From a virus (lineage: Duplodnaviria > Heunggongvirae > Uroviricota > Caudoviricetes): DNA of 16,663 bases. The notes below the pieces were generated by a model that saw only the letters and a list, made by a program, of their open reading frames with translations, made no database searches and was not told where the DNA came from. The DNA lies in IMG/VR virus record IMGVR_UViG_2690315994_000023, one strand, 5' to 3'. A program made the translations under genes and the position numbers. Positions 741-16,663 of this stretch are shown piece by piece (within the stretch, counting starts at the first letter, position 1; each line of letters opens with the position of its first letter).

Positions 741-779
741 TGGGGAGGCCGCAGGGTTGCACATGGTGCGGTTCTCTAT

Positions 780-1568: not shown

Positions 1569-1569
1569 A

Positions 1570-1767: not shown

Positions 1768-1770
1768 CAA

Positions 1771-2429: not shown

Positions 2430-2439
2430 GGGGGTGGCG

Positions 2440-2712
2440 ATGGTACATGACCGCATAGCGGAAGAACTCGAGGCGAAAGGCTTTTACCGGAGGGCGGCGG
2501 CGCGATGGGGTGAAGTCATGCTGCTGGTGGAGACAGACAAGGAACGGCATCAGGTTACGATGCGACGGCTGGAATGTTCCAGGAAGGCACAGAAGCCACC
2601 GGAGCCGCCGGATAACTTCGGAGACCTGAGAAAGGCAGTAGATCGCACTTATGCTGAAATGGGTATAGATGGTGTAAGCGATGAAATATGGCGAAATTAC
2701 CAGGACAGATAA
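2440..2712 (+). CDS. PerC-family small transcriptional regulator (probable)
   Basis: A 90-aa protein starting at ATG 2440 (Shine-Dalgarno GAGGGGGTGG). The N-terminal IAEELEAKGFYRRAAARWGEVM matches, from memory, the PerC-family signature (AE.LE.KG..RRAA.RW). The track ORF 2320..2712 is an upstream extension overlapping ssb. Confidence 0.5.
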   Translation: MVHDRIAEELEAKGFYRRAAARWGEVMLLVETDKERHQVTMRRLECSRKAQKPPEPPDNFGDLRKAVDRTYAEMGIDGVSDEIWRNYQDR

Positions 2713-2718
2713 TCACAC

Positions 2719-2741
2719 AGCCGGAGCAATCCGGCTTTTTG
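2719..2741 (+). terminator. Rho-independent terminator after the PerC-like gene
   Basis: AGCCGGA-gcaa-TCCGGCT hairpin followed by TTTTTG. Confidence 0.7.
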
Positions 2742-2860
2742 TCATGTTTTGTAAATTATTTGTTCGTGGTTGTTCCACGTTGCTCGCTGACCGGAACGGC
2801 ATATTTTACCCGACCTGAATCATGATTATTCTCGCCCGTGGTGCCAGGACGCTGGGGCCA

Positions 2861-2910
2861 TTTTCCCGCCTGTTAATGTGCTCGCCAATATTCATTACCA
2901 GGCGGGAAAA
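2861..2910. promoter_or_regulatory. Perfect 12-bp inverted repeat (TTTTCCCGCCTG ... CAGGCGGGAAAA) with 26-bp spacer, upstream of the capsid gene
   Basis: Arms at 2861..2872 and 2899..2910 are exact reverse complements. The repeat lies in the ~285-bp leader between the PerC-like gene and the capsid operon. It has T upstream and A downstream on both strands, so it is not a terminator. Confidence 0.4.
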
Positions 2911-2999
2911 CGATCGGTGCGATTACTGATTTCCTTATGAAAAACGGTTGAGTGTTTGCCGCGTCCTGGAGTTCCTTACTTAACCCCAGGACTTTTTTT

Positions 3000-4157
3000 A
3001 TGCCGAGAATAATCGAATTACGCCAGCAGAAAACCGCCATTAAAAATCAGATGCGCGACATGCTGGAGAACGCGGAAAAAGAAAACCGCAGTCTTAACGA
3101 TGCTGAGGGCGCAAAATTTGACGAATTACGCGCTAAAGCTGAATCCCTCGATAAAGACATTTCCCGCCTTGAAGCCATTGCAGACGAAGAGCGCAGCAAG
3201 CCAGGTAAAAGCAGCCAGACCACTGACCCCGCAGAATTACGCAACTACATTCTGACAGGTGAAACCCGCGCATTAAGTACAGGCGTTCCCGCTGATGGTG
3301 GTTATACCGTTATCCCCGAACTGAACACCGAAATCATGCGAATGCTGACGGATGAATCCACCATGCGCCGCATCTGTACCGTGAAGAAAATCAGCAGCAA
3401 CGAGTTTAAGCAGCTTGTTTCCGCTGGCGGTGCGACCGTTAACCACGGTGAAGAGGGTAAGACACGCGAACAGACCAGCACCCCGCAGATTAACGAGGTG
3501 AGCATTAAGCTGTATCCGGTCTATGCGTACCCGCGCACCACACAGGAAATCGTGGATTTTTCCGATGTGGACATCCTTTCATGGCTGACGGGTGAGATTG
3601 GCGACACCTTCACGGAAACCGAAGAAAGCGATCTGGTTGTGGGCGACGGTGACAAAAAAGCAAAAGGCTTTTTATCCGTACCCCGTGCAGAGAAGAACGA
3701 CAAAGAGCGTGATTTTGGTACGTTACAGGTAATTAAACCTTCCGAATCTCTGGCGTGGACATCTGCGGACCCGCTGATCGACCTGAAATTTGCATTACAT
3801 AAAAAATACCGCAAAAACGCGGTCTGGGTGGTTAACTCCACGACGGCCGCAAAACTTCAGAAGGTGAAGAACGCGAACGGTGATTACATCTGGCGCGACC
3901 GTTTACAGGCGGGTGATCCTGATACGTTGCTGGGCCTTCCGGTCGAATATCTGGAGTTTATGCCTGATAACGTTATTGCCCTGGGTGACTTCAAACGCGG
4001 TTACTACATTGTTGATCACGAAACAGGTGTTCGCACCAGACCGGACAACCTCACAGAGCCGGGCTTCATCAAAATTTTCACGCAGAAATATTTAGGCGGT
4101 GGCGTGGTGGATTCGAACGCGATCAAGATTCTGGAACTGCCACAGGACGACGATTAA
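3000..4157 (+). CDS. Major capsid protein, HK97 family, with N-terminal scaffold-like delta domain
   Basis: ATG at 3000 with AGGA 8 nt upstream. The N-terminal ~100 aa are coiled-coil and charged (IIELRQQKTAIKNQMRDMLENAEKENRSLNDAEGAKFDELRAKAESL), typical of the HK97 delta domain. Length and C-terminal region fit the HK97 capsid fold. Context is protease and portal immediately downstream. Confidence 0.88.
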   Translation: MPRIIELRQQKTAIKNQMRDMLENAEKENRSLNDAEGAKFDELRAKAESLDKDISRLEAIADEERSKPGKSSQTTDPAELRNYILTGETRALSTGVPADGGYTVIPELNTEIMRMLTDESTMRRICTVKKISSNEFKQLVSAGGATVNHGEEGKTREQTSTPQINEVSIKLYPVYAYPRTTQEIVDFSDVDILSWLTGEIGDTFTETEESDLVVGDGDKKAKGFLSVPRAEKNDKERDFGTLQVIKPSESLAWTSADPLIDLKFALHKKYRKNAVWVVNSTTAAKLQKVKNANGDYIWRDRLQAGDPDTLLGLPVEYLEFMPDNVIALGDFKRGYYIVDHETGVRTRPDNLTEPGFIKIFTQKYLGGGVVDSNAIKILELPQDDD

Positions 4158-4167
4158 CAGCATACAG

Positions 4168-4188
4168 AAGGGGCTTAAAAGCCCCTTT
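4168..4188 (+). terminator. Hairpin plus T-run between capsid and protease genes (possible attenuator)
   Basis: AAGGGGC-ttaaaa-GCCCCTT followed by TAGTGTTTT. Confidence 0.4.
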
Positions 4189-4211
4189 AGTGTTTTATGG
4201 GTGAAAAAATT

Positions 4212-4769
4212 ATGAAGAGTATGGAAATCCGGTCATCGGAAATCACCACCAGCGCCAGCAACACGCTTACAGGCTACGTTGTTCGCTGGGATAACCTTTC
4301 AGAGCTGCTATGGGGGGAGTTTTACGAAAAATTCCAGCGGGGAGCGTTTACTGAATGGCTTGCAGCGGGTAATGACGTTCGCGGCCTGTATGAGCATGAC
4401 CACAGCATGTTACTGGGGCGCACCCGTTCCGGCACGCTGAAACTGGAAGAGGACGACACAGGGTTACGCTTTGAACTGACCCCACCGGATACCAGTACAG
4501 GGCGGGACGTTATCGAACTGGTTAAACGAGGTGATATATCCGGCATGAGCTTTGGCTTTCGCTCCCGTAAGGATGTATGGGATACCACAACAGATCCATG
4601 CGTGCGCACCGTGCTGGTGGCGGAACTGTACGAAATTACCGTTACATCCGTACCGGCTTACCCTGATTCCGGCGTGGAGCTGGCCCGCCGCTCCCTGTAC
4701 GAGCAGCACCCCGAAAAAATGCCGCGTGCGGATAATCGCCGCTGGTGGGCGGATTTAGCGGGGGTGTGA
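4212..4769 (+). CDS. Prohead maturation protease, HK97 family
   Basis: Motifs GYVVRWDN, LYEHD, LGRTRSGTLKLEEDDTGLRFE, GDISGMSFGF and ELYEITVTSVPAYPDS fit HK97-type prohead proteases. ATG 4212 has GGTGA upstream; the alternative ATG at 4197 has no ribosome binding site. Confidence 0.85.
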   Translation: MKSMEIRSSEITTSASNTLTGYVVRWDNLSELLWGEFYEKFQRGAFTEWLAAGNDVRGLYEHDHSMLLGRTRSGTLKLEEDDTGLRFELTPPDTSTGRDVIELVKRGDISGMSFGFRSRKDVWDTTTDPCVRTVLVAELYEITVTSVPAYPDSGVELARRSLYEQHPEKMPRADNRRWWADLAGV

Positions 4770-4770
4770 T

Positions 4771-5982
4771 ATGTGGCCTTTCAGAAGAAAAAAAGAGCAG
4801 CGCAGCATGACGCTTGATGAGTTTATGGCGCTGGCCGGCACATCGAACACGGGGGCGGGTGAGTACGTATCATCGGGGACAGCGGAATCACTGCCCGCCG
4901 TCATGAACGCCGTGACGGTCATCTCTGAGGCGGTGGCTACCATGCCGTGTTACCTGTACCTGGTACGCAATGAGAAGGGGAAGGAGGCCCGCGAGTGGCT
5001 TGATTCTCATCCGGTCGATCACATCCTCAACGAGCGCCCGAACGCGTGGCAAACCCCCTACCAGTTTAAGCGAATGATGATCCGCCACTGCCTGTTAAAC
5101 GGTAATGCTTATGCGGTGATTCGGTGGGGGCGTGATGGTTTTCCGGTGGCTTTACATCCTTACCCGCCGCAGTCGGTGAACGTGGAGCAGACAGGTGAGC
5201 ATAACTGGCGCTACTGCATCACTGACGCCTACACCGGAAACACCCGCAACTATTTACCGTGGGAGGTTCTCCACCTTCGTTACTCCACGGATGACGGTTT
5301 TATGGGGCGCTCACCTGTAACCATCTGCCGCGAATCGCTGGGGCTTGGGCTGGCCCAACAACGCCACGGCGCGAGCGTGATGCGTGATGGCATGATGGCG
5401 GCAGGGGTTATCACGTCAGGCGAATGGCTGGACGGCGTGAAGGGCAAACAGGCATTAGCCGCACTGGAACGCTACAAAGGGGCCAGAAACGCCGGAAAAA
5501 CGCCCATCCTTGAAGGGGGTATGAGCTATCAGCAGCTGGGCATGAGTAATCAGGATGCTGAATGGCTGGCCTCCCGTCGCTTCACCATTGAAGACATCGC
5601 CCGAATGTTCAACGTCTCGCCGATTTTTTTGCAGGAATACAGCAACAGCACCTACAGCAATTTCAGCGAGGCAAGCCGCGCATTTCTCACCATGACGATG
5701 CGCCCGTGGCTGGCGAACTTTGAGCAGCAGATAAAAAACGCCCTGCTGGTGGCCTCACCTGTACCTGGTATCCGGTATCAGGTGGAGTTTGACAGCGCGG
5801 ACCTGTTACGGGCCACACCTGGCGAACGCTTTGCCACCTATGAACGCGGCATCAAATCCGGCGTTATGTGCCCGAACGAAGCCCGCGAACGTGAAGGGCT
5901 GTCCCCGCGTGATGGTGGTGATGAGTTCAGCCAGGCATGGAAACAGGAAGTAAAAATCAGCGAGGGAGAAAAACCGGAATGA
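4771..5982 (+). CDS. Portal protein, HK97 family
   Basis: A 403-aa protein starting 2 nt after the protease stop. Its length, composition and position in the head module fit phage portal proteins. Confidence 0.85.
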   Translation: MWPFRRKKEQRSMTLDEFMALAGTSNTGAGEYVSSGTAESLPAVMNAVTVISEAVATMPCYLYLVRNEKGKEAREWLDSHPVDHILNERPNAWQTPYQFKRMMIRHCLLNGNAYAVIRWGRDGFPVALHPYPPQSVNVEQTGEHNWRYCITDAYTGNTRNYLPWEVLHLRYSTDDGFMGRSPVTICRESLGLGLAQQRHGASVMRDGMMAAGVITSGEWLDGVKGKQALAALERYKGARNAGKTPILEGGMSYQQLGMSNQDAEWLASRRFTIEDIARMFNVSPIFLQEYSNSTYSNFSEASRAFLTMTMRPWLANFEQQIKNALLVASPVPGIRYQVEFDSADLLRATPGERFATYERGIKSGVMCPNEAREREGLSPRDGGDEFSQAWKQEVKISEGEKPE

Positions 5983-6317
5983 ACATAGGGCGACTGCGTG
6001 ACAGGGTAACGATTCAGACCCTGAAACAGACCAGGGATATAACCGGCGAAATACTCGAAACGTGGGTGGACGGTCACACACTCTGGGCAAGCGTGAACAT
6101 GATCAGCAGCAAGGAGGCCATTTCATCGGGTGCAGAACTGGCGACTGGAACGGTAAGGATATGGATACGCTACAGGAAGGACATCAACGCCACCAGCCGG
6201 ATAAAGGTCAATACGGGGCCGCTGGCGGGGCGTGTACTGAATATCATCGGGCAGCCGCTGCCGGATGCCGCCAGGACACGCCTTGAAATTCTTTGTCGTG
6301 AGGGCGCGGAAAAATGA
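5979..6317 (+). CDS. Head-closure / head-tail joining protein (SPP1 gp16-like)
   Basis: ATG overlaps the portal stop (ATGA). A ~112-aa protein with RDRVTIQ ... GTVRIWIRYRKDI ... RVLNIIG motifs typical of phage head-tail joining proteins. Confidence 0.7.
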   Translation: MNIGRLRDRVTIQTLKQTRDITGEILETWVDGHTLWASVNMISSKEAISSGAELATGTVRIWIRYRKDINATSRIKVNTGPLAGRVLNIIGQPLPDAARTRLEILCREGAEK

Positions 6318-6610
6318 CAGAAGAACTTATCACCCTGGAAGAAGTGAAACTCCATTGCCGCATCGATGGCGACGAGGAAGACCAGTTAATCAGCGGATAC
6401 ATTGCCGCATCGCTTGAGGCGTGCCAGATACATATAGGCAGGCGCTTTGATGACGGGCTGGAGTTCACGCCAGCCATAAAGATTGGCTGCATGATGTTTA
6501 TCGCTCACCTGTACGAGAATCGCCAGCTGGTAGCGGATAACGCAAAAACGCGCGTACCCATGACGATTGGCGCGCTCTGGACGGCTTACCGTGATGTGGG
6601 GGTGTACTGA
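6314..6610 (+). CDS. Head-tail connector / DNA-packaging adaptor (gp6-like)
   Basis: ATG overlaps the previous stop. The N-terminal LITLEEVKLHCRIDGDEEDQLI and the IAHLYENR motif match gp6-like head-tail connector proteins. Confidence 0.7.
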   Translation: MTEELITLEEVKLHCRIDGDEEDQLISGYIAASLEACQIHIGRRFDDGLEFTPAIKIGCMMFIAHLYENRQLVADNAKTRVPMTIGALWTAYRDVGVY

Positions 6611-7050
6611 TGCCGTGGCAACCATTAAGACGATGCACAGAACCAGGCTGTAACAGGCGCGTGAAGTCCGGCAAGTGTGAGGAGCACAGGCGGGCGGCAT
6701 GGCGTGCAGAGGATGCCAGACGAGGACACCGCCGCGCGCGTGGGTACTCCAGACAGTGGGACAAATACCGCGCCATGTATCTGAGTAAAAACCCGTTATG
6801 CGTGCGATGCCTTGAGAAGGGGATATATACGCCCGCCGTGGTGGTGGATCACATTATCCCGATTAATGGCGGTGATGATGTTCTCTTCTGGCCCGAATGG
6901 AACCATCAACCATTGTGCCAGGCGTGTCATAACCAGAAAACGAAATGGCTTGATCCGGCAACAAAAAGCAAGCGTGCCGCAGGTGGATTTCATGAAGAGG
7001 AAGAACGGGCCGCTAACCGCAATAACTGGATGTATGACGCTGATGAATGA
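6610..7050 (+). CDS. HNH endonuclease (phage packaging-associated)
   Basis: Cys-rich zinc-binding motifs (CTEPGC..., CVRC) and the HNH signature VDHIIP ... NHQPLCQACHNQKT. It sits immediately upstream of terS/terL, as in cos-type HK97-like phages. Confidence 0.85.
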   Translation: MPWQPLRRCTEPGCNRRVKSGKCEEHRRAAWRAEDARRGHRRARGYSRQWDKYRAMYLSKNPLCVRCLEKGIYTPAVVVDHIIPINGGDDVLFWPEWNHQPLCQACHNQKTKWLDPATKSKRAAGGFHEEEERAANRNNWMYDADE

Positions 7051-7216
7051 GCGGGAACAAAACCGCCTTATCCGTGGACTTATAAGGCAGCGTGACGCAT
7101 GGAAGACACAGGAAACAGGGCATAAAGATAAAGCGTCAGGACGCGCAGAACGCATCACAGCGAAGCGATTAACCGACCGTGACCGCGAGGTTATGGAATG
7201 TTTCCGCAATCGCTGA
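7034..7216 (+). CDS. Hypothetical small basic protein (about 60 aa)
   Basis: ATG at 7034 (or 7043) in a frame overlapping the HNH 3' end. The track ORF 6812..7216 is an implausible upstream extension inside HNH. Confidence 0.3.
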   Translation: MTLMNEREQNRLIRGLIRQRDAWKTQETGHKDKASGRAERITAKRLTDRDREVMECFRNR

Positions 7217-7227
7217 TGAGGCTGTAT

Positions 7228-7272
7228 GACGGGGTGGGGGGCGTTTTCAGGACAAACCCGACCCCGCCGGGC
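7228..7272. other. Candidate cos / terminase recognition region (G-run and C-run imperfect dyad)
   Basis: GACGGGGTGGGGGGCG, a 13-bp spacer, then CCCGACCCCGCCGGGC, in the only sizeable intergenic gap between HNH and terS. Confidence 0.25.
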
Positions 7273-7339
7273 ACCGAACGCCTCCTCAAATTTTTATGCA
7301 CGGGAATTTTTTGAAAAATAATCTGGCGAAAAAATAAGC

Positions 7340-7696
7340 ATGGCAAGACCACCGAAAGCCCCCGCCTACCTGGATGATATCGCCGTGAAGCAGTGGCGGG
7401 AAAAATCGCGGCAGCTTGCGGAACGGGGAGACCTTACCCCCGCCGACTGGAGTAATCTGGAACTGTATTGTGTCAACTACTCCATTTACCGGAAAGCCGT
7501 TGCAGACCTTGCGGCGCGCGGGTTCAGCATTGTTAACAGTCAGGGCGGCGAGAGCAGAAACCCCGCATTAAGCGCAAAATCCGACGCTGAAAGAGTGATG
7601 ATAAAAATGGCCTCCTTGCTCGGTTTTGACCCGATAAGCCGCCGTAAAAATCCACCGGAAACAGAAGAAGAGGACGAGCTTGACCGCCTGGAATAA
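7340..7696 (+). CDS. terS: Terminase small subunit, P27 family
   Basis: A 118-aa protein directly upstream of and overlapping terL. The N-terminal PKAPAYLDDIAVKQWREKSRQLAERGDLTPADWSNLELYCVNYSIYRKA matches P27-family small terminases. Confidence 0.75.
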   Translation: MARPPKAPAYLDDIAVKQWREKSRQLAERGDLTPADWSNLELYCVNYSIYRKAVADLAARGFSIVNSQGGESRNPALSAKSDAERVMIKMASLLGFDPISRRKNPPETEEEDELDRLE

Positions 7697-9341
7697 GTAC
7701 GCAGAAGACGTAAAAACGGGCAAAATTCCGGCCTGTAAACGGCTGAAACAGGCCGTTAAACGGTACTTTTCGGACCTTGAAAGCCCCCTTTACACGTTCG
7801 ATCGTGAGGTTGTGGAGCGGTTTATTGCCTTTTCCAGGGTGTGCCCGCACGTAAAAGGCGCAATGCGCGGTAGCCCCATTGAGCTGGAGCCGTGGCAGCA
7901 GTTCGCCTTTGCGTGCATCCTCGGCTTTAAGGTTAAGGCCACCGGACGGCGCAAATACACGAGCGCCTTTATCGAAGTGCCGCGCAAAAATGCGAAATCC
8001 ACGACCGCCGCGATTCTGGCTAACTGGTTTTTGATTATGGAGAACGGTCAGCAGGATATCTACACCGCAGCGGTGAGCCGTGACCAGGCGCGGATCGTCT
8101 TTGATGATGCGCGTCAGATGTGCCTTTTATCCCGACCGTTACGCAGGCGGGTGAATATTCAGGCGCATAAGGTGATACACCCGAAAAGCAACAGCCTGTT
8201 AAAGCCGCTGGCAGCAAAAGCGGCAACCATTGAAGGTACAAACCCGAGTCTTGCCATTGTGGATGAATATCACCTGCACCCTGACAACGGGGTTTATTCC
8301 GCGCTTGAACTGGGAATGGGGGCGCGTCCGGAGGGGCTGTTATTTGCCATCACCACATCGGGGAGCAACGTTGTTTCAGCCTGTAAACAACACTACGACT
8401 ATTGCTGCCAGATACTGGATGGTGAAGAGGTGAACGAATCCATGTTCGTGCTGATTTACGAGCTGGATGATGAAAGCGAGGTTGACGATCCGGCGATGTG
8501 GATAAAGGCGAATCCAAATATCGATGTTTCCGTCGATCGTGAAAAACTGGCCTCAACCATCCAGAAAGCGCGGGGTATTCCGTCGCAGTGGGTGGAAATG
8601 CTCACCAAGCGATTCAATATCTGGTGTCAGGGGGCTACGCCGTGGATGGGTAACGGTGCATGGGCGGAGTGCGCCGGAACGTTCACGGAGGAAGATTTAC
8701 ACGGCCAGGAGTGTTACGCGGGGCTGGATTTATCATCCACAAGCGATATTTCCAGCGTGTGCTATGCCTTTCCGGTCGGTAAAACCATTATGCTGGTTTC
8801 CCGTCATTATCTGCCGGAGTTCCAGCTACAGAACCCCGCCAATAAAAACCGCGCTGTCTATCGTCAGTGGGCTAAAGCGGGCTGGATACGCACAACGCCT
8901 GGCGACTGCATTGATTACGACCGGATCAGAGATGACATCATGCAGGACGCGGAGAAATTTAATATCAGGCTGGTGGGCTTTGATACGTGGAACGCCACGC
9001 ATCTCAGAACGCAATTACAGGGGGCAGGTTTTGAGGTGGAGCCGTTCCCGCAAACCTACCTCAGATTCAGTCCGGCGGCGAAATCGTTCGAAGTTTTTGT
9101 TAACCGCAGGGTGATTGTGCATCGTGGCGATCCGGTGTTGTCCTGGTCGATGAGTAACGTTGTGATGCAGAGTGACGCGAACGCCAATATCAAGCCGAAC
9201 AAGAAAAAATCACCGAACAAGATAGACCCGAGCGTGGCGGCACTGATGGCGTTTGGCACATTCCAGGCAGAGCATGAGGATTTTGAATTCGATATGAGCG
9301 ATAGCCATAAGCAGCGACTTGCCGAATTTACCGGGATTTGA
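7680..9341 (+). CDS. terL: Terminase large subunit
   Basis: A 553-aa protein with a Walker A-like segment (EVPRKNAKST), a Walker B-like stretch (LAIVDEYH) and a C-terminal nuclease-like region. The start is uncertain: TTG at 7680, overlapping the terS 3' end. Confidence 0.88.
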   Translation: MTAWNKYAEDVKTGKIPACKRLKQAVKRYFSDLESPLYTFDREVVERFIAFSRVCPHVKGAMRGSPIELEPWQQFAFACILGFKVKATGRRKYTSAFIEVPRKNAKSTTAAILANWFLIMENGQQDIYTAAVSRDQARIVFDDARQMCLLSRPLRRRVNIQAHKVIHPKSNSLLKPLAAKAATIEGTNPSLAIVDEYHLHPDNGVYSALELGMGARPEGLLFAITTSGSNVVSACKQHYDYCCQILDGEEVNESMFVLIYELDDESEVDDPAMWIKANPNIDVSVDREKLASTIQKARGIPSQWVEMLTKRFNIWCQGATPWMGNGAWAECAGTFTEEDLHGQECYAGLDLSSTSDISSVCYAFPVGKTIMLVSRHYLPEFQLQNPANKNRAVYRQWAKAGWIRTTPGDCIDYDRIRDDIMQDAEKFNIRLVGFDTWNATHLRTQLQGAGFEVEPFPQTYLRFSPAAKSFEVFVNRRVIVHRGDPVLSWSMSNVVMQSDANANIKPNKKKSPNKIDPSVAALMAFGTFQAEHEDFEFDMSDSHKQRLAEFTGI

Positions 9342-9343
9342 AT

Positions 9344-9535
9344 ATGCTCAAACACAAGAAAATTGAGTCTGTGATCGACGAAATGGCACGTCAATTAGGC
9401 CATGAACTTAACGGGCAGGATAAGCTGGTAATCCGCACTAAAACAGCTATGGTGTTGGCCGCTAAACAGCGGTACCGTCAGCGCATGGAAGCGCCACCCT
9501 ATCAGTGGCGAAAGCCAGATAAATTAAGGCGTTGA
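9344..9535 (+). CDS. Hypothetical small protein (63 aa), last gene of the packaging operon
   Basis: ATG 9344 lies 3 nt after the terL stop, and a strong terminator follows. Confidence 0.4.
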   Translation: MLKHKKIESVIDEMARQLGHELNGQDKLVIRTKTAMVLAAKQRYRQRMEAPPYQWRKPDKLRR

Positions 9536-9556
9536 AAGAGGTTCATCCCCCTACAA

Positions 9557-9588
9557 AGCACCAGTATTGTTCTGGTGCTTTTTTGTTT
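9557..9588 (+). terminator. Rho-independent terminator at the end of island 1
   Basis: Perfect 8-bp stem AGCACCAG / CTGGTGCT with a 7-nt loop, followed by TTTTTTGTTTGTT. Confidence 0.8.
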
Positions 9589-9601
9589 GTTCAGAAAAAG
9601 C

Positions 9602-9625
9602 TGTATAAACATTTGTATAAACATT
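9602..9625. repeat. Perfect tandem direct repeat, 2 x TGTATAAACATT
   Basis: Copies at 9602..9613 and 9614..9625, between two terminators in the island junction. Confidence 0.6.
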
Positions 9626-9632
9626 AATAAAA

Positions 9633-9662
9633 AAGGCGCTTCCCCATGCCGAGTAGCGCCTT
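9633..9662. terminator. Bidirectional-type terminator hairpin (A-run, stem, T-run)
   Basis: AAAAAAGGCGCT, a 14-nt loop, then AGCGCCTTTTT. Confidence 0.6.
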
Positions 9663-9873
9663 TTTAATCAAGCAGTTAGCTAAATTGAATTAGTTCATGC
9701 CGTATTGTAAAATACAGAGTCATTATACGTAATTTATTATCACTCTAGATAATTTGTATTCATCATAAATAATTGATGCAGAACGAGATATTTATTTTTT
9801 ATTGGCTCGCATTGTATCATCAGTTATCAGTTACTCCCTGCATACAGTTGTCAAAAAGGTTGTCATTAACTCT

Positions 9874-11109
9874 ATGGCCGAAAATAAACTCTCAGATGTT
9901 CAATTGCGTGCGTTAACCCGCAAAGTCATCGAAAAACCTTTTGATGTTGCTGACGGTGGCAGCCTTTCTGTTCGCGTTACACCATCAAGGCGCAAAATCC
10001 TTGATGGCGAGAAGAGACCGGCCAATAACATCCAATGGTTGTTCCGTTATAAGAATAAGCATAAAAGCGCCAATACTTTGACGCTAGTGCTGGGCAAGTA
10101 TCCTGCCTTATCTCTTGCTGAGGCGAGGGTGAAACGCGACCAATGCAAACGGTGGCTTGCTCATAATCTAGATCCTAAAGACCAGTTTGACCAAGAGTCA
10201 GCAAAAACCATGAAACCTGTCACTATCAGGGAAGCATTGGAACGCTGGATTAATGAGTACGCGGCGGAAAACCGGGTCAACTTTGAAAGGCATAGACGCC
10301 AATTCGAAAGACATATTTATCCTTTCATCGGCGAATTGCCACTTGAACAGTGCTCTAAAGCAAGATGGATGGAGACATTTAGCAGAATCAAAAAAGTCGC
10401 GCCGGTAGCAAGCGGCTACATATTAGGTAACTGCAAGCAGGCGTTGATTCACAACCGCAGGCTGCACGATGTTTACAGTGATGCGCTGGAGGATATCAAA
10501 GTTACTGATGTTGGAAGAAAGCAGGCAAAACGTGATCGTGTTTTAACTTCTGAAGAACTTAGTGGCCTTTGGAATGCGCTAAAAAGCGAATATGCGTTTC
10601 TACCTTACTACACCGCGCTTTTAAAATTGCTAATAGTGTTTGGTGCAAGAACACAAGAAATTCGTCTTTCGACATGGTCGGAATGGAACGTGAAAGAATG
10701 GATTTGGACAGTTCCGCGAGAACATAGCAAGGGTGGGGAGAAAATCATCAGACCCGTGCCTGAATCTATACAGCCATTTATTTTACAGCTACGCCAAAAT
10801 CATCTTGATAGCGGAATGCTGCTTGGTGAAATGAAGAAACCCGAAGCTGTCAGCCAGTGGGGGCGTATCTTATACAGGCGATTAGAGCATTCAACGCCGT
10901 GGACGTTGCATGACCTGCGCCGCACTTTTGCCACCAGTCTAAATAACTTGGGGATAGCCCCGCATGTGGTTGAACAGTTGCTGGGCCACTCAATGCCAGG
11001 AGTGATGGCGGTGTACAACCGTAGCCAGTACATCCCGGAAAAACGGTTAGCCTTGGACAAATGGATAAAATATTTAGAAAAAATAAACCTTTTAAAATCA
11101 GATAATTAA
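9874..11109 (+). CDS. int: Tyrosine recombinase / integrase, P4 type
   Basis: An N-terminal arm-binding-like region (LSVRVTPSRRKILDGEKRPANNIQWLFRY) and a C-terminal catalytic region with HDLRRTFATSL and LLGHS...AVYNRSQY (tyrosine nucleophile). ATG 9874 is preferred over the track's TTG at 9802. Confidence 0.88.
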   Translation: MAENKLSDVQLRALTRKVIEKPFDVADGGSLSVRVTPSRRKILDGEKRPANNIQWLFRYKNKHKSANTLTLVLGKYPALSLAEARVKRDQCKRWLAHNLDPKDQFDQESAKTMKPVTIREALERWINEYAAENRVNFERHRRQFERHIYPFIGELPLEQCSKARWMETFSRIKKVAPVASGYILGNCKQALIHNRRLHDVYSDALEDIKVTDVGRKQAKRDRVLTSEELSGLWNALKSEYAFLPYYTALLKLLIVFGARTQEIRLSTWSEWNVKEWIWTVPREHSKGGEKIIRPVPESIQPFILQLRQNHLDSGMLLGEMKKPEAVSQWGRILYRRLEHSTPWTLHDLRRTFATSLNNLGIAPHVVEQLLGHSMPGVMAVYNRSQYIPEKRLALDKWIKYLEKINLLKSDN

Positions 11110-11403: not shown

Positions 11404-11583
11404 ATGGAATTACTGACTGCTAAGCAAGTCACAACACTAACAACATTATCCCGCATGACTATCTGGCGCTATATCCAGGCTGGCACGTTTCCTAATTGCA
11501 TAAAATTAGGGCCAAAACGCGTGGCCTGGCGGCGCAAAGATGTTATGGCGTGGCTTGAAAGCCGCCAGCCAGTACAGCGCTGA
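11404..11583 (+). CDS. alpA: AlpA-family (MerR-like HTH) prophage transcriptional regulator
   Basis: A 59-aa ORF, below the track cutoff. LLTAKQVTTLTTLSRMTIWRYIQAGTFPNCIKLGPKRVAWRRKDVMAWLESRQ matches the AlpA helix-turn-helix pattern. It sits directly downstream of int, as in P4-like elements and PICIs. Confidence 0.8.
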   Translation: MELLTAKQVTTLTTLSRMTIWRYIQAGTFPNCIKLGPKRVAWRRKDVMAWLESRQPVQR

Positions 11584-11591
11584 GGTGGCTT

Positions 11592-11873
11592 ATGAAGAAA
11601 ACAACCGTAAATCAGGCTATCAGTCGCTATAACAGCCTGTTGCGTAACCCACAGCGCCAGTTAACCGTTGGCGAACTTACCGCCCAGCGTATGGCGGCAG
11701 CACAATTATTGTTGCAAGCATGCATTCGCGAAGGTGTAAACCGCCCGTGGACTATTGTTTCACGTCACGCCGCTATGGCTGATAGCCTGGTGCCGTTTCG
11801 CATCAGCGATTCTGAATCATGGGCGATGTATCTGGAGTTAAAACGCGGGGTGCGATATGAGAAACGCGCCTAA
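11592..11873 (+). CDS. Hypothetical protein (93 aa), translationally coupled to replicase 2
   Basis: ATG 11592 follows the GAGGTGG Shine-Dalgarno, and the 3' end overlaps the replicase start by 17 nt. Confidence 0.5.
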   Translation: MKKTTVNQAISRYNSLLRNPQRQLTVGELTAQRMAAAQLLLQACIREGVNRPWTIVSRHAAMADSLVPFRISDSESWAMYLELKRGVRYEKRA

Positions 11874-13545
11874 CGTTAAGCTATTACCTAAAGACCCTTT
11901 TACGGAAGCAATTATTTTTGCCGGTTCTGACGCTTGGAGCCATGCCAAGGGCTGGGAAGAAGGAATGGGTAAACAAGTTGCCGGTGACACTACTCCTCCT
12001 GTCTATCTTGGGCCAAGACAACTGGATGATTTAGATAATCTACGAATTATCGACGATGGTCGCCGGTCTGCGCGGGTATATCTGGCTGGTGATATTAAGC
12101 AACTTCAAATCAGCACTATTGCTGACAAGCTGGCAGTGGCTGGAGTTAAGGAAGCCCGTTTATTTAAAGGCATTACTGACCGTGAACCGGAAAAATGGAA
12201 CATGGACAGGCTTAGAGACGCCGCCCTACGCGGTGAAAGCCTGGTGGGCATGCTGCGCAAAGAAGAACGAGCAACCGCCGCAGCAACTGTAAAAGACATT
12301 CACGATATGGCTCCTGTATTAATGACAACCTGGCCAAATATTGGAAGCAATGGCCAGCCTTTAAACACACGCCCTAATGTTGAACGTCTATTAGATAACT
12401 ACAGCATTTCTGCAAAATATAATGAGATTAGCAAGGACGTTGAGGTTTTAGTACCTGGCGTTAGTGGCGGTTCAGATGCTCGCGATAACTGCGCTGTGAG
12501 TGAAATTTTAAGCCTCGCCGCACTGAACCGGTTACCAATGAGTAATATTGAAGGTCATATCAAAACTATCGCTGTGCGCAATACTTATAATCCTGTCAGG
12601 GATTTCATCAATCAACGTGAATGGGATGGACGAAGCCGATTTGCAGACCTGCTGAATACTATCAGCACGCCAGATGACTACAGTCGCGATCTGCTGGCCA
12701 TGCTGGTGCGTCGTTGGTTGCTGTCTGCCGTGGCGGCTGCTTACTTAGAAGCGGGTTTCTGGTCCAAAGGCGTGCTGGTTTTCCAGGGCGAGCAGTCACT
12801 GGGTAAAACAGCATGGTTTAAAGCGCTTCTGCCCCCTGACAATCGCAACCTGGTTAAGGTGGGAGCAACTATTGACCCCGGCAATAAAGACAGCGTGGCC
12901 AGCGCAATTAGTCACTGGCTTGTTGAGCTAGGCGAATTGGATGCGACGTTTCGCAAGGCGGATATTGCCAAGCTCAAAGCATTTATCAGCCAGGACCGTG
13001 ATGACCTGCGCCGCCCTTATGACCGGCTTGAATCGAAGTACCAGCGCCGCACCGTGTTTTTTGCGTCAGTGAACCCGAAACACTTCCTGGCGGATGACAC
13101 CGGGAACGTGCGCTGGTGGACCATTCCTGTAACTGCCGTTAACTACGAGCATGGCATAGACACACAACAATTATGGGCCGAAGTTCTTTCCTGGTTTGAA
13201 GCAGGTGAACGCTGGTGGCTGGATCGTGATGAAGAAGCCATGCTGGAAGTAGTGAACGAACAGCACGGGCAAACTGACCCGATTGAAGAAATGATATTGG
13301 CGCGTTTTGATTGGAACAGTGATCGCCTGGCTGCATATATAGAAATGACTGCAACGGATGTTCTGTTGTCTATTGGGCAGGATCGGCCAACAAAATCCCA
13401 GGCAACGCAGTGCGGTAACATTCTGCGAAAACTGACTGGAAGGGATGCACGTAGAACAAGTAAAGGGCGTTTTTACCTAATGCCACCGAAAGTTTTTGGA
13501 CAGCAAGACCATAGCTATTTTGATGGGCCTAACCGCCAGTTTTGA
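11857..13545 (+). CDS. Replication initiator: conserved N-domain + P4-alpha/VirE-like P-loop NTPase (primase-helicase type)
   Basis: The N-terminal ~105 aa are homologous to those of ORF 168..740. The central and C-terminal part has Walker A GEQSLGKTAWFKAL and downstream motifs (LVELGELD, RTVFFASVNP) of the P4-alpha / D5 / VirE-type superfamily-3-like NTPase found in satellite primases. Confidence 0.8.
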   Translation: MRNAPNVKLLPKDPFTEAIIFAGSDAWSHAKGWEEGMGKQVAGDTTPPVYLGPRQLDDLDNLRIIDDGRRSARVYLAGDIKQLQISTIADKLAVAGVKEARLFKGITDREPEKWNMDRLRDAALRGESLVGMLRKEERATAAATVKDIHDMAPVLMTTWPNIGSNGQPLNTRPNVERLLDNYSISAKYNEISKDVEVLVPGVSGGSDARDNCAVSEILSLAALNRLPMSNIEGHIKTIAVRNTYNPVRDFINQREWDGRSRFADLLNTISTPDDYSRDLLAMLVRRWLLSAVAAAYLEAGFWSKGVLVFQGEQSLGKTAWFKALLPPDNRNLVKVGATIDPGNKDSVASAISHWLVELGELDATFRKADIAKLKAFISQDRDDLRRPYDRLESKYQRRTVFFASVNPKHFLADDTGNVRWWTIPVTAVNYEHGIDTQQLWAEVLSWFEAGERWWLDRDEEAMLEVVNEQHGQTDPIEEMILARFDWNSDRLAAYIEMTATDVLLSIGQDRPTKSQATQCGNILRKLTGRDARRTSKGRFYLMPPKVFGQQDHSYFDGPNRQF

Positions 13546-13779: not shown

Positions 13780-13802
13780 TATCACAACGGTTGTTACCCA
13801 TT

Positions 13803-13834
13803 GCCCTGGCGAATGCCGGGGCTTTTTTTATTTT
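13803..13834 (+). terminator. Rho-independent terminator
   Basis: GCCCTGGC-gaat-GCCGGGGC hairpin followed by TTTTTTTATTTT. Confidence 0.7.
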
Positions 13835-13848
13835 CAAAGTGACGCCTA

Positions 13849-14151
13849 GGTGTCATTAATTTATAAGGTGTCATGGTAGGTGTCATTGTTCTCAAGCCAT
13901 AACCCGCAAGGGTTGCGACATTACTAATGACACCTATGACACCTATGACAGCATTTTTAAAGAAAATAACGACCACTGTAATAATGTAACAGTGGTCGTT
14001 ATACTTTATAGAAATGGGTGTCATGGTGTCACAGGTGTCATTCATTACAGTATCTTGTTTGTATTTTTCTTTAATAATCAGCGTGTTTCCCGCTATGACA
14101 CCTAATGACACCTTTCCAACATAACGCCGTCATGGTGACATTAGGTGTCAT
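13849..14151. repeat. Iteron array, putative origin of replication of island 2
   Basis: GGTGTCAT at 13849, 13867, 13879, 14017, 14034 and 14144. Its reverse complement ATGACACC at 13927, 13936, 14095 and 14105. Variants GGTGTCAC at 14025, GGTGACAT at 14134, and a partial at 13945. The array has an AT-rich centre. Confidence 0.65.
13966..14002. repeat. Perfect 14-bp inverted repeat (ATAACGACCACTGT / ACAGTGGTCGTTAT) with 9-bp AT spacer, at the centre of the iteron array
   Basis: Exact reverse-complement arms at 13966..13979 and 13989..14002. Confidence 0.6.
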
Positions 14152-14545
14152 CGCCATCTGCTGCCAAAAAAGTCAAGGTACTTCCGAGGGGGGTACAGCC
14201 TGCGGGGGCATTGGTCCCGCGTAATTCGCGTTGTGCGTGCCCCTACAAAACTCACTTTATGATTACGTCAAGTAAATCAATCATTTATGTGAATCCTATC
14301 AAAGCACTGGAACCATAATTGCGAGATTGCAAAATAAAGCGAACACGTTTTACACACGCTGAATTGTAAAGATGTGTAAATATCGATTACGCCGGATTAT
14401 GCCTGGTTATTTGCAAGTATTCATGGTTATAAGTTACTGATTTTACATTAAAAAGCTCACATTGTGGCTATTGTGTTCGGCCTGGTTACTGTATATCTTT
14501 AAGTCATTCCAGACGATTTATTGCACAACAACCGGAGCATTTTTA

Positions 14546-15430
14546 ATGAACGTTTTATCTCAACTTATCAACGACGCGTTGAACCACCAGGGCGGCCACA
14601 TTCGCACTGATGGCAACGGTGACATTACTCAATTCATCCCTGTGGAACCTGCAGCAGTTCGCTACCTGTCCATGAATGACGTGCTGACCCCGAAAGGCGG
14701 CAAGCAGACCACCTTCAACGCTGTTCTGGCTGAACGTTCACTGGTGGCACAGGCAGGCGCTGAAATCATCCGCATCCCTGGCCCGATGACCACGCCTCCG
14801 ACTGGCAACACCGGCGCAACGACTGGCCGCGAAGTGGCTGACCGCTTCGTTGTCGTTCGCCCTGGTGCGTTCGCCAAAGTGGCTGACGGCGAAGAAATCA
14901 CCATGAGCGGCCTGCCTTACCTGGTATCAGCGTTCAACCACAACAACGCACCGGCTTACGGCGTGGGCTACACCCTTAGCCGCAAGCAGATGAAACACGA
15001 CTTCGCAGACGATACCACGCTGGAAGTGGTCAACACCGCCATTGAACGCGGAATTGCTGACCTGGCTGATTTCGTACTGCTGAACCACCTGGAAACCGCA
15101 GCGGAAACGCTGGCCAGCCCGTCATTCACCGCAGTGGCGCAGAAGATTGCAGCCAAAAACCTGCGCTTTGATGAAGTTAAAGCCATTGTTGGCGGTGATT
15201 GCACCGGCCTGGAACTGCAAGACGGCGTTCTGCGTGCCTACGGTGTACGCGCTGAAATCAGCGGCCAGACTTCCAGCACAATCATTGGCGCTTTCGGCAA
15301 TGCAGCCGTTGCCCTGGATGATGAAATCCGCGTCACCGCCCGCCGCGTGCTGAATGGTGCCGTTGAAATCGTTGTGTGGGTGAACGCATCCGCACTGGTG
15401 CCTGACTCAACTATGTTCTGGAAGGCTTGA
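14546..15430 (+). CDS. Hypothetical protein (294 aa), Ala/Gly/Thr-rich, strongly optimised codon usage
   Basis: ATG 14546 has GGAG 7 nt upstream. Codon choice is heavily biased (CTG, CGC/CGT, GGC, ACC, AAC, TTC, GAA), unlike neighbouring genes. It has no signal peptide and no recognisable catalytic motif. Confidence 0.6.
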   Translation: MNVLSQLINDALNHQGGHIRTDGNGDITQFIPVEPAAVRYLSMNDVLTPKGGKQTTFNAVLAERSLVAQAGAEIIRIPGPMTTPPTGNTGATTGREVADRFVVVRPGAFAKVADGEEITMSGLPYLVSAFNHNNAPAYGVGYTLSRKQMKHDFADDTTLEVVNTAIERGIADLADFVLLNHLETAAETLASPSFTAVAQKIAAKNLRFDEVKAIVGGDCTGLELQDGVLRAYGVRAEISGQTSSTIIGAFGNAAVALDDEIRVTARRVLNGAVEIVVWVNASALVPDSTMFWKA

Positions 15431-15432
15431 TC

Positions 15433-15747
15433 ATGTGGTGGGGCAGCAAAAAAGCGGCAGCGGAGCGCGCTGCCCTGCCGGGTGAAATCCTGGCAGCTAT
15501 CGAAGGTGTGGCCATGTATGTGCGCCACGGTGATGAAAACACACCGCGCATCGTAGTGCAGCCGGTTGGCTGGTCAGGATTCATCTACAGCGATGACGCT
15601 GCTGAAAAATGGATTCGCAAGGCTTACCCGGAGCTTAAGCAGTACCAGATTGAACGCGCCGTGAATTACCTCGCTTCCCTGGTGCGCAGTCACTACCGCG
15701 AGCAGCGCCCGAAACAGAAGCGCGAAAGCTGGATGAACAGGTACTAA
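15433..15747 (+). CDS. Hypothetical protein (104 aa), translationally coupled to the upstream gene
   Basis: ATG 15433 starts 2 nt after the upstream TGA (TGATCATG). Confidence 0.5.
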   Translation: MWWGSKKAAAERAALPGEILAAIEGVAMYVRHGDENTPRIVVQPVGWSGFIYSDDAAEKWIRKAYPELKQYQIERAVNYLASLVRSHYREQRPKQKRESWMNRY

Positions 15748-15750
15748 GCC

Positions 15751-15915
15751 ATGAAACGACAAGAAACACGCCAGCACGTAACGGTACGCCTCGCCCCTGA
15801 CCTGGTGCGCCAGGTCGAAAGAGAGCAAGCCAAACTGGAACGCAGAACAGGCATCCGCCCTTCACGCAGCCAGGTGATTGAAAAGTTTCTGAGTAGCGGG
15901 CTGAACGGCAAATAA
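15751..15915 (+). CDS. Ribbon-helix-helix (CopG/Arc-like) DNA-binding protein, 54 aa
   Basis: Below the track cutoff. A predicted beta-strand VTVRLAP is followed by two helices (DLVRQVEREQAKLERRTG, SRSQVIEKFL), the classical ribbon-helix-helix layout. It starts 3 nt after the upstream stop. Confidence 0.55.
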   Translation: MKRQETRQHVTVRLAPDLVRQVEREQAKLERRTGIRPSRSQVIEKFLSSGLNGK

Positions 15916-16129
15916 TGGCCAAGAATACAGGTTTCACCGGTTCCCTGTGCCCCAAATAACCGGCCAAATTTAACCTTCATCGTTCCTCAGACGATGGATG
16001 CTGGAACCAGGTTGGTGGTCATCCTGGACGGTCAAAACCACCACTAATTCCACACCGGTTGCGCCGCACCTGTCACCTAAAAGCGCGCACTCACTTAATC
16101 ATCAACAACTATTGTTAGCGGCCAATACT

Positions 16130-16447
16130 ATGAAAAAACATGACCTGTACGAATCAATGAAAGAAGAAGCGCGTTTGATCCTTAGCGAAACAAAGCGTTT
16201 CCAAACCATTTCAGAGAAAAACCCTATCAGCTACGAAGCAGCCGACCTGCTGGCAAGCCTTCGCAACCGTTTAAACGCATTCGAACACATGACCGATGAA
16301 GCGGGCCGCATCATGCGTGACGAAGCGGAAAGCCACGCATCCGCCCTGGGACGCACGAAGTGGCAACCATCCAGCCGCATCAGTTCCGGTGAACGGGCCA
16401 AACGCCAGGCGGTGAAGCGCGGCGCTATCCTGGTACGGAGTGCATAA
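16130..16447 (+). CDS. Hypothetical charged, probably helical protein (105 aa)
   Basis: ATG 16130 is preferred. The track extension from 15998 is Ser/Thr/Pro/Trp-rich and low-complexity, so unlikely to be coding. Confidence 0.4.
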   Translation: MKKHDLYESMKEEARLILSETKRFQTISEKNPISYEAADLLASLRNRLNAFEHMTDEAGRIMRDEAESHASALGRTKWQPSSRISSGERAKRQAVKRGAILVRSA

Positions 16448-16456
16448 GGGGGCACC

Positions 16457-16663
16457 ATGCTGGACCGTATTCACACAAAACCGGAAGGAACAAACCCCTG
16501 GCCTGAACTGGTGGATATGGTCCTGCCAAAAGTTCTGGCGTGCAACACAGCGGAGGAAATGCAGAAACAGCGAGACTACCGCACCGAATGCGCCCTGCAA
16601 CTGGCCGCTGCCGCCTTGCGGGCAATCGGTGAACACACCCTTGCAGAAAATTTACTTAATTAA
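16457..16663 (+). CDS. Hypothetical protein (68 aa)
   Basis: ATG 16457 follows the AAGGGGG Shine-Dalgarno, with TAA at the window end. Confidence 0.4.
   Translation: MLDRIHTKPEGTNPWPELVDMVLPKVLACNTAEEMQKQRDYRTECALQLAAAALRAIGEHTLAENLLN

Follow-up and report, generated by a model that had tools for sequence, protein, structure and literature searches.

A predicted capsid gene and two small companions behind a helper-type cos site: probable core of a 9-kb satellite of Jilinvirus-type phages

The 16,663-nucleotide virus record IMGVR_UViG_2690315994_000023 (Caudoviricetes; hereafter the window) carries three consecutive genes coding for proteins of 294, 104 and 54 residues (Table 1). They belong to a genomic island, here called island 2, that lies between yhdJ and fis in E. 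coli MY1-8. Window positions 14100–16663 are 100% identical to this genome, where RefSeq calls the three coding sequences (CDSs) hypothetical proteins. An initial annotation, made from the letters of the window alone, had described three tightly coupled genes that follow the replication origin of the island. The open reading frames (ORFs), the RefSeq CDSs, intergenic gaps of 2 and 3 nt and an upstream iteron array with more than 12 copies of AGGTGTCAT agree with this description. A purine-rich stretch lies 5′ of each ATG.

Table 1. Positions of the features discussed in the text. Positions 1–9689 belong to a second island in tandem with island 2.
Feature	Position	Strand	Remarks
294-aa gene (predicted capsid protein)	14546–15430	+	ORF; same CDS in RefSeq E. 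coli MY1-8
104-aa gene (partner protein)	15433–15747	+	ORF; same CDS in RefSeq E. coli MY1-8
54-aa gene (probable ribbon-helix-helix protein)	15751–15915	+	ORF; same CDS in RefSeq E. coli MY1-8
105-aa protein	16131–16447	+	internal ATG of ORF 15998–16447; called as 105 aa in plasmid forms
68-aa protein	16457–16663	+	directly 5′ of tape measure gene
cos site copied from Jilinvirus helpers, as judged by sequence	14167–14239	+	97–99% identity to phage lysis genes–terS intergenic region
Putative 13-nt cohesive end GGGGCATTGGTCC	14205–14217		within cos copy
AT-rich leader, candidate regulated promoter/operator	14240–14545	+	~95% conserved, integrated vs plasmid forms
Replication origin, iteron array AGGTGTCAT	13847–14154	both orientations	repeat families D1–D4, D7, D9, D10, I2–I21
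VapE-type primase/helicase replicase	11857–13545	+	Pfam VapE-like domain 4.5e-48, PHROG DNA primase
AlpA-like excisionase/regulator	11404–11583	+	weak NCBIfam excisionase match
Tyrosine integrase	9874–11109	+	Pfam Phage_integrase, Arm-DNA-bind_3; start from RefSeq CDS
attL core TTAGTTCATGCCGTATT of island 2, junction with upstream tandem island	9690–9706	.	17-bp direct repeat
Tandem island: TerL	7680–9341
Tandem island: HNH	6610–7050
Tandem island: portal	4771–5982
Tandem island: Peptidase_S78	4197–4769
Tandem island: PF05065 capsid protein	2952–4157
Tandem island: SSB	2019–2429

The initial annotation had left the first gene without an assignable function and had proposed to compare its predicted structure with fold databases. 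In sequence searches the 294-aa protein (A 13%, V 10%, G 9%, T 8%) has no match in Pfam, PHROG or NCBIfam at E ≤ 0.01, none in PADLOC, and none among PDB sequences, whether searched as a single sequence or as a profile. It does not belong to a curated capsid sequence family such as PF05065 (Phage_capsid), and its fold is assigned by structure alone. An AlphaFold2 (AF2) model built from a 25-sequence alignment (pLDDT 76, pTM 0.75) conforms to the HK97 fold (N-arm, E-loop, P-domain with long spine helix, A-domain), with a spine helix of 29 residues at 157–185. With this model, Foldseek found 244 matches in the PDB at E ≤ 1e-3, with probability 1.00 against many solved capsids and alignments that cover 265–330 columns. 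The best 50 of the 244 are capsids of phages, gene transfer agents and satellites, including HK97, P4, SaPI1, SaPIbov5 and PLE, together with encapsulin shells and one engineered nanocage. Against BFVD there were 229 matches at the same threshold, and those among the best 50 that bear a name are capsid or prohead proteins. Because of this model and these capsid matches, we assign the 294-aa protein as a predicted HK97-fold major capsid protein (MCP) without a delta/scaffold or protease domain.

This assignment is in line with the relatives of the protein. A large protein collection contains 102 homologues, found in Enterobacterales and Pseudomonas, one of which falls into a UniRef cluster named 'Phage major capsid protein'. 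The MCP family counts 275 representatives at E ≤ 1e-3, many of them about 500 residues long and carrying an N-terminal Peptidase_S78 domain; homologues of 463–465 aa (P0093, P0094 and P0096) likewise start with this prohead protease. The Peptidase_S78 domain of these relatives shares 49.5% identity with the protease segment in the head fusion protein of phage HeidiAbel_Bas97 (Bas97). The association with a prohead protease is seen through the homologues; the E. coli copy itself has no protease domain. The HK97 fold and the protease-fused relatives overturn the view that the first gene is unassignable.

The 73-bp stretch that ends 307 bp upstream of the MCP start codon is, judged by its sequence, a helper cos site. 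It is 97% identical to phage Bas97 and 98.6% identical to phages ECO1230-10 and ep3. The linear record of phage ECOO78 has the 13-mer GGGGCATTGGTCC at both ends, and the Arya record starts 4 nt 5′ of GGGGCATTGGTCC. On the other side of the three genes, 22 nt past the end of the window, starts a gene for a 757-aa tape measure protein (TMP; positions 20586–22859 of L001, the MY1-8 record) with a Pfam PhageMin_Tail match of 3.5e-39. This protein is 64–66% identical over its full length to the TMPs of the ~41-kb myophages Bas97 (65%), ECOO78, ECO1230-10, ep3 and Salmonella PT1, all of the genus Jilinvirus (subfamily Iiscvirinae), and 41% identical to the TMP of Pseudomonas phage PPpW-3. A 524-bp stretch of the TMP gene (L001 22083–22606) reaches 92% nucleotide identity to Bas97 as compared to ~69% for the remaining gene, which suggests recent recombination between satellite and helper. 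In the primase gene of island 2, the stretch 12700–13439 is 76% identical at the nucleotide level to the Bas97 primase gene over 744 nt. Jilinvirus phages encode TerS, a GpA-type TerL, a portal and a 682-aa protease-scaffold-MCP fusion. The idea that the satellite MCP is a recent copy of the helper MCP was dropped, because a tblastn search of 50,697 phage records found no match, and hhalign of the MCP family with the helper head fusion aligned the protease part alone, with no similarity in the MCP domain.

The segment from 14160 to 14545 had been read as a promoter region. Its first part turned out to hold the cos copy, and the leader that follows remains a candidate regulated promoter. This leader is conserved between integrated and plasmid forms of the element despite their differing replication modules. 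No sigma-70-like site was found in it. It contains two 13-bp direct repeats 20 bp apart, TATGCCTGGTTAT at 14398–14410 and TATTCATGGTTAT at 14418–14430, for which matches in helper-type phage do not exceed chance; a further repeat, GCCTGGTTAC, occurs near 14479. The operon had also been thought to end at 15915, with the three genes as the whole unit. Conserved genes for the 105-aa and 68-aa proteins and then the TMP gene follow beyond this point, and between 14546 and the end of the window nothing resembling a terminator was detected on the plus strand, so that the transcription unit probably reaches the TMP gene. The module is accordingly larger than three genes and includes cos upstream and the genes through TMP downstream.

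Codon usage was assessed by the codon adaptation index (CAI), computed with the Sharp-Li E. coli weights. The MCP gene (0.52) and the 104-aa gene (0.47) exceed all other genes of the window (0.17–0.41); comparison values are 0.51 for fis, 0.52 for accB, 0.53 for accC, 0.55 for mreB and 0.53 for the Bas97 head gene. The codon bias of the MCP gene is thus real yet moderate and below the level of ribosomal proteins. Of the earlier claim of strikingly optimised codons and very high expression, the bias itself stands and the degree has to be lowered to that of a gene such as fis. By its codons the MCP gene looks highly expressed, and the CAI of the 104-aa gene suggests that its product is also made in structural amounts.

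The 104-aa partner is always encoded by the gene after MCP. Scans of Pfam, PHROG and NCBIfam found no enzyme or other family match for this protein. Homologues include a Pseudomonas protein (Ps_99, E = 2e-17) and a Salmonella protein (Sa_155, E = 1e-4), and eight members could be aligned. The basic C-terminal tail of the 104-aa protein ends in SWMNRY and resembles the C-terminus of helper-type TerL. In BLAST, the C-terminus of Ps_99 matches that of Bas97 TerL, end to end. The terminases end in ...KRRGGGWVSRW (Bas97 TerL) and ...GRRKGWVNNF (PPpW-3 TerL), and the partner proteins in ...KQKRESWMNRY (the 104-aa protein, Ec_104), ...SRRTSWVSRW (Ps_99), ...YGGGWFSQI (Sa_155), ...CSWLTDY (partner in L019) and ...SSWVHGF (partner in L023). 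The motif [S/G]-W-x-x-x-aromatic aligns in seven of the eight partner proteins, at the extreme C-terminus in five and with a short extension after it in two; W100 of the 104-aa protein is invariant among close homologues. A W-x3-aromatic/aliphatic ending occurs in 65 of 120 TerL clusters (P0262–P0381, GpA-type and related to Bas97), and none of the other late proteins of Bas97 and PPpW-3 ends in the Trp motif. About half of the 120 clusters have G-W-V/A-x-x-W/F after a basic stretch at the extreme C-terminus, and a sub-clade that includes a Salmonella prophage TerL ends in an Arg-rich tail without Trp.

In lambda gpA, the archetype of this terminase family, the C-terminal tip is needed for docking: the nonsense mutation Aam42, at the fifth codon from the end, removes the last five residues and abolishes both prohead binding and docking at the portal (PMC4856287). 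From the TerL-like motif and this role of the gpA tip, we infer that the partner may contact the helper portal at the terminase docking site. For the Salmonella prophage that embeds one of the satellites, covariation between partner and TerL tails was also considered; it fails, as that TerL has no motif.

The third gene had been annotated as a ribbon-helix-helix (RHH) regulator, and the 54-aa protein is indeed probably an RHH DNA-binding protein, with modest support from sequence comparison. The family consensus, xVTVxLxxELxxxLxxERxxLExxTGxxxSxSQ, corresponds to a strand, a helix, a G-x-S turn of sequence and a second helix, as in RHH proteins. When a seven-member profile was compared by hhalign with Arc, Mnt, CopG, ParD, RelB and NikR (six classical RHH sequences), 41 columns aligned in the canonical register (P = 7.8e-4, probability 25%). 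Weak matches to Pfam RHH_1 (E = 0.026) and RHH_5 (E = 0.055) occur in two relatives only, and the PDB sequences contain no match, including to the profile. This RHH-like protein probably regulates the module, and it possibly acts through the direct repeats at 14398–14430, which make a possible operator.

Eight MCP contexts were sampled, from the chromosome of E. coli, from Pseudomonas and Salmonella, from plasmids of enterobacteria, and from metagenomic elements of soil, marine and other origin. Without exception, the gene behind that for the MCP or protease-MCP fusion encodes a 98–158-aa homologue of the 104-aa partner, and in seven contexts a homologue of the 54-aa protein (52–61 aa) comes third. 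The Salmonella element has an 82-aa gene that aligns with the 54-aa family and lies upstream of MCP. The backbone of the sampled elements consists of an integrase and/or a primase-helicase; none of the eight contexts contains a portal or terminase gene, and the TMP gene is present in some elements and absent from others. Between the E. coli and Pseudomonas islands, identity amounts to 39% for MCP, 34% for TMP, 32% for the 104- and 99-aa partners and 35% for the 54- and 53-aa proteins (E = 9e-5), while similarity between the 68-aa protein and its 71-aa counterpart (Ps_71) is weak (E = 3e-3). The integrated elements measure 9,346 bp in E. coli and 9,844 bp in Pseudomonas, the one embedded in a Salmonella prophage 9,166 bp, an enterobacterial plasmid 9,062 bp, two circles 8,854 bp (L019) and 8,847 bp (L022), and L021 about 8,568 bp. 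That ~9 kb is kept on unrelated backbones, whether or not the element has the 2.3-kb TMP gene, speaks for a constraint imposed by head size.

The plasmid forms deserve separate description. Three Logan contigs (L010–L012) represent a single 9,062-bp circle, of which they are exact rotations, and their ends overlap by k-1. The circle lacks an integrase gene and encodes a replicase with PriCT_2 and DUF5906 domains, a domain set also known from P4 alpha. Five plasmids of this kind, from E. coli, Proteus and Salmonella, are listed in PLSDB with the cos-MCP-partner-RHH-TMP cassette (NZ_CP083588.1, CP054330.1, NZ_CP104987.1, NZ_CP100673.1 and CP077066.1); four measure 8.9–9.3 kb and one 17.4 kb, and all are typed as non-mobilizable. 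A further record, L009, groups with the three contigs and these plasmids. The 17.4-kb plasmid has two matching places and is possibly a dimer, and one plasmid form carries VapE and an AbiEi antitoxin gene. The cos copy is also present in the plasmid forms. Plasmid and integrated forms become homologous precisely at cos and remain so across the leader and MCP, which indicates that the mobile 'late' cassette begins with cos. Among 5,426 complete E. coli genomes, 66 contain the satellite module of island 2.

On balance, we consider it probable that the three genes form the conserved core for morphogenesis in a ~9-kb satellite that parasitises Jilinvirus-type (Iiscvirinae) myophages. With the same degree of confidence we suggest that this would be a minimal satellite, which combines portal, terminase and tail parts of the helper with its own shell and tape measure. 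The initial annotation had expected genes for interference or morphogenesis, or cargo, at this position. The capsid fold bears out morphogenesis, and PADLOC gave no anti-phage or toxin-antitoxin signal for the three genes and their neighbours, so that this part of the expectation lapses. In the proposed cycle, a Jilinvirus would infect the cell and the satellite would replicate from its own origin, after which the late module would be switched on. Abundant MCP and the 104-aa partner would assemble a shell on the helper portal, and helper TerS and TerL would cleave the satellite DNA into cos-to-cos units and package these. The basic, Trp-containing C-terminal peptide of the partner may anchor the foreign shell protein at the portal taken from the helper, or may compete there. 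Filled heads would then join helper tails built round the satellite TMP, a step with a demonstrated precedent in the tails of the satellite PLE11 (PMC12987554). The conserved length suggests a small capsid of about T=3–4 that would exclude the 41-kb helper genome. This triangulation number is a volume-scaling estimate for 9–10 kb, made from a presumed T=7 head with 41 kb.

Whether such a shell would be built by the satellite protein alone can be debated. SaPIbov5, likewise a cos satellite, encodes the capsid-protein homologue Ccm, which acts on the heads of phage phi12 (PMC8569155), and the 294-aa model matches the SaPIbov5 procapsid 7rwz_C. By analogy, the satellite MCP could co-assemble with the helper capsid protein, for example as pentamers, and force smaller heads; the missing scaffold and protease could then come in trans from the 682-aa head fusion of the helper. 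We regard this as unlikely, since Ccm is homologous in sequence to the helper capsid protein and neither tblastn nor hhalign detects such homology in the MCP domain here, which makes mixed lattices less likely. Many family members, moreover, are self-contained protease-MCP fusions, and the high CAI suggests bulk rather than vertex-only amounts. The lack of similarity to the helper MCP and the self-contained fusions among relatives favour, as far as sequences can tell, an autonomous shell over co-assembly. Still more remote is an encapsulin-like nanocompartment, in which a shell with a downstream cargo protein bearing a C-terminal targeting peptide would serve metabolism or storage and be unrelated to DNA packaging. 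Encapsulins do rank high among the structural matches, the protein encoded behind the shell does end in a conserved peptide, and small integrase-bearing HK97 elements without portal and terminase have been linked to encapsulins (bioRxiv 10.1101/2025.06.18.659913). An encapsulin system would, however, have an enzymatic cargo gene and no phage packaging signals, whereas island 2 has a helper-identical cos directly upstream and a helper-type TMP gene downstream. The relatives are fused to a prohead protease, and the partner has no enzyme family match in the three databases searched. Its C-terminal peptide resembles a terminase tail and is unlike known encapsulin targeting peptides. We therefore give the nanocompartment hardly any weight.

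The products of the module could also act against the helper. MCP, partner and TMP may serve mainly as poison subunits or decoys that derail both head and tail assembly of the helper and protect the host population, and the element itself would travel as concatemers of about four units in ordinary helper heads. Four units come to ~90% of the helper genome length, a TerL-tail mimic could block terminase docking, capsid genes of phage-inducible chromosomal islands (PICIs) are reported to be unnecessary for transfer (PMC10111431), and tail-targeting defence by a satellite is known for PLE11 (PMC12987554). This is an improbable explanation in our view, because a complete HK97 fold has been conserved over the long term from E. 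coli to Pseudomonas and marine elements, and because in many lineages MCP is fused to an apparently intact prohead protease, which suits a maturing shell and not a decoy. The element length is tightly conserved even without TMP, and the PADLOC search was negative.

Several observations also weigh against the proposed satellite with a shell of its own. Everything beyond an MCP gene next to a helper cos is inference. The lengths are equally compatible with tetramers (36–39 kb) that are cos-packaged in helper-sized heads, and the reported dispensability of capsid genes for transfer in other Gram-negative PICIs (PMC10111431) bears on this satellite as well. No scaffold was identified, and the E. 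coli MCP has neither a scaffold nor a protease domain. As no sequence similarity to the helper MCP domain was detected, it is uncertain that the shell would fit the portal and the head-completion proteins of the helper. The model of the 104-aa protein is of low confidence (pLDDT 68) and gave no informative fold match, and the TerL of the Salmonella prophage has no Trp tail although the partner encoded by the embedded satellite has one. Finally, searches in near and distant modes found a Jilinvirus-like prophage in none of the 5,426 complete E. coli genomes, so that the helper must come from outside; Jilinvirus phages are reported to be mostly lytic (PMC11990801), consistent with the lack of a resident prophage.

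Among known satellites, capsid-forming PICIs (cf-PICIs; Alqurainy et al. 2023, via PMC12987554 and PMC10085698) resemble island 2 in their chromosomal int-alpA-primase backbone, their own HK97 MCP and the use of helper tails, and some carry putative tmp genes (PMC12987554, Extended Data Fig. 10). They differ in that they bring a full head and packaging module (MCP, protease, portal, connectors and terminase subunit(s)) on ~11–18 kb, whereas island 2 has only MCP, a partner of ~100 aa and the RHH-like protein, together with a helper cos copy, on ~9 kb, and also occurs as a plasmid without integrase. Portal, connectors and terminase are absent from island 2 and from the eight sampled relatives, and the protease occurs only as an MCP fusion in some of them. 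SaPIbov5 with Ccm similarly combines a helper cos with a capsid-fold gene that changes head size (PMC8569155). In contrast to Ccm, which is homologous to the helper capsid protein, the MCP described here is not detectably similar to the Jilinvirus MCP domain; island 2 also differs in its Gram-negative hosts, its myovirus helper and its TMP gene.

P4 with its helper P2 is comparable as a small satellite of a contractile-tailed cos phage that has its own primase-helicase and exists integrated or as a plasmid. Like P4, island 2 carries a helper cos (73 bp, 97–99% identity, including the 13-mer). P4, however, acts on the capsids of P2 through Psu and the external scaffold Sid, and has no gene for a capsid protein or a TMP. 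Pfam, PHROG and NCBIfam gave no match to Sid, Psu, Delta or Epsilon in island 2, and the gene order differs from that of P4. The PLEs of V. cholerae, in particular PLE11 with chimeric tails of TMP, TAC and BhuB, share the use of an own TMP in otherwise helper-derived tails (PMC12987554). They rely on the helper coat protein and the external scaffold TcaP (PMC10945586) and not on an own MCP, and the PLE11 TMP is ~20% identical to that of its helper, as compared to 65% for island 2. No Rta-like gene was identified in island 2. EPIPs also have their own TMP (PMC12822802).

Among the PICIs of Mageeney et al. 2023 (PMC10111431), those that integrate at fis share the fis attachment (att) site and tandem occupancy with island 2, and the helper-embedded ones (HE-PICIs) have the configuration of the Salmonella relative, which sits in a late (head) gene of a prophage. 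The helpers described there are lambdoid and the PICI capsid genes are of the lambda gpE type; the available passages mention neither this MCP family nor its cos, TMP or an Iiscvirinae helper. Portal-less 'mini' HK97 elements (bioRxiv 10.1101/2025.06.18.659913) are also below 11 kb and have an HK97 shell gene, an integrase and a replicase but no portal or terminase. They are proposed to be tail-less and related to encapsulins, whereas the helper cos and TMP gene of island 2 point to classical terminase packaging and tailed particles. A literature search for satellites that combine MCP and TMP led to PLE11, EPIPs and cf-PICI examples, and to no report on island 2. We found no description of the three-gene set, of the Jilinvirus link or of a terminase-tail mimic; coverage of the literature was incomplete and a prior description is possible. 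The satellite type seems to be widespread but undescribed.

If the proposed cycle is correct, it would represent an intermediate strategy of piracy. Known satellites follow one of two routes: P4, SaPIs and PLE alter helper capsids by means of small scaffolds, and cf-PICIs carry a complete head module. This satellite would instead add its own shell, one partner and a TMP to the cos, portal and terminase of the helper. Its particle may also be a naturally occurring, very small HK97 capsid filled with DNA. If the mimicry of the terminase tail is real, it would offer a handle on how a portal recruits foreign shell proteins and docks the terminase. Judging from the plasmid forms, phages may be able to transmit some of the small enterobacterial plasmids that are typed as 'non-mobilizable'. 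The candidate helper Bas97 belongs to a public collection of E. coli K-12 phages, which makes the model testable. A bolder version holds that this is the smallest self-encapsidating tailed-phage satellite seen so far, with a scaffold-less T=3–4 shell of 294-aa subunits, a stolen portal, a 104-aa TerL-mimicking adaptor and a tail built on its own TMP, and that the three genes define a widespread unnamed family on chromosomes, 9-kb plasmids and in helper prophages. We consider this version doubtful as a whole.

The earlier claim that the island is a satellite is supported. Island 2 has an int-alpA-primase-origin layout at the fis att site. The genes run in the order int, alpA, a 93-aa ORF, VapE primase, a 74-aa ORF, iteron origin and MCP, followed by the 104-aa, 54-aa, 149/105-aa and 68-aa genes and the 757-aa PhageMin_Tail protein. 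Co-directional int, alpA, primase and origin at a specific att site are the layout of Gram-negative PICIs. The 17-bp direct repeat TTAGTTCATGCCGTATT occurs at L001 positions 13591 and 22937 in MY1-8, the latter at the fis stop codon, and delimits an island of 9,346 bp. TTAGTTCATGCCGTATT agrees with the fis att consensus for PICIs, for which tandem occupancy is also reported (PMC10111431). A defective prophage remnant was considered and rejected, because the att sites are precise and the genes intact, circular copies exist, and the element is conserved in more than one genus. The AlpA-like protein is 43% identical to a Pseudomonas island protein with a Pfam Phage_AlpA match. Pfam, PHROG and NCBIfam found no terminase or Rpp-like family among the island 2 proteins, which thus include by these searches neither Rpp nor an own TerS, the means of packaging redirection in classical Gram-negative PICIs; island 2 has the helper cos in their place. 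The replicases are modular. In VapE of island 2, residues 1–114 share 68% identity with the N-terminal end of the AAA_25 replicase encoded by the Salmonella relative (L003 7771–9189), and the C-terminal part is encoded by the stretch 12700–13439 that resembles the Bas97 primase gene. A minus-strand ORF at 13794–14111 (105 aa, hypothetical in RefSeq) is probably not a gene, because it overlaps the iterons, starts with GTG, has the lowest GC content (0.39) and has a CAI of 0.19. The 105-aa protein encoded downstream of the 54-aa gene has no family match in Pfam, PHROG, NCBIfam and PADLOC scans; its C-terminus resembles, by eye, that of the Pseudomonas protein Ps_74, and it is possibly a tail-assembly accessory.

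Window positions 1–9689 represent a second island, of the cf-PICI type, in tandem at the fis att site (Table 1). Its AAA_25 replicase is split into two ORFs, 168–740 and 780–1568, which suggests a frameshift or a pseudogene. The tandem junction of the two islands was found in none of the 5,426 complete E. coli genomes. The Salmonella relative (L003 4672–13838, 9,166 bp; Salmonella enterica GCA_018535225.1) codes for a protease-MCP fusion, a TMP-like protein of 521 aa and a partner of 155 aa. Bounded by the 16-bp repeat ATCCCCAAACAAACAG, it is inserted at about residue 450 of the protease-scaffold-MCP head gene of an Iiscvirinae-like prophage, and is a helper-embedded satellite that splits the capsid gene of its helper. 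On the Pseudomonas island, a gene at L005/L006 12289–12528 codes for a 79-aa Phage_tail_X protein, similar to gpX, with 47% identity to the Bas97 'baseplate hub' protein of 69 aa. With TMP and a gpX-like gene, that satellite would replace at least two tail components.

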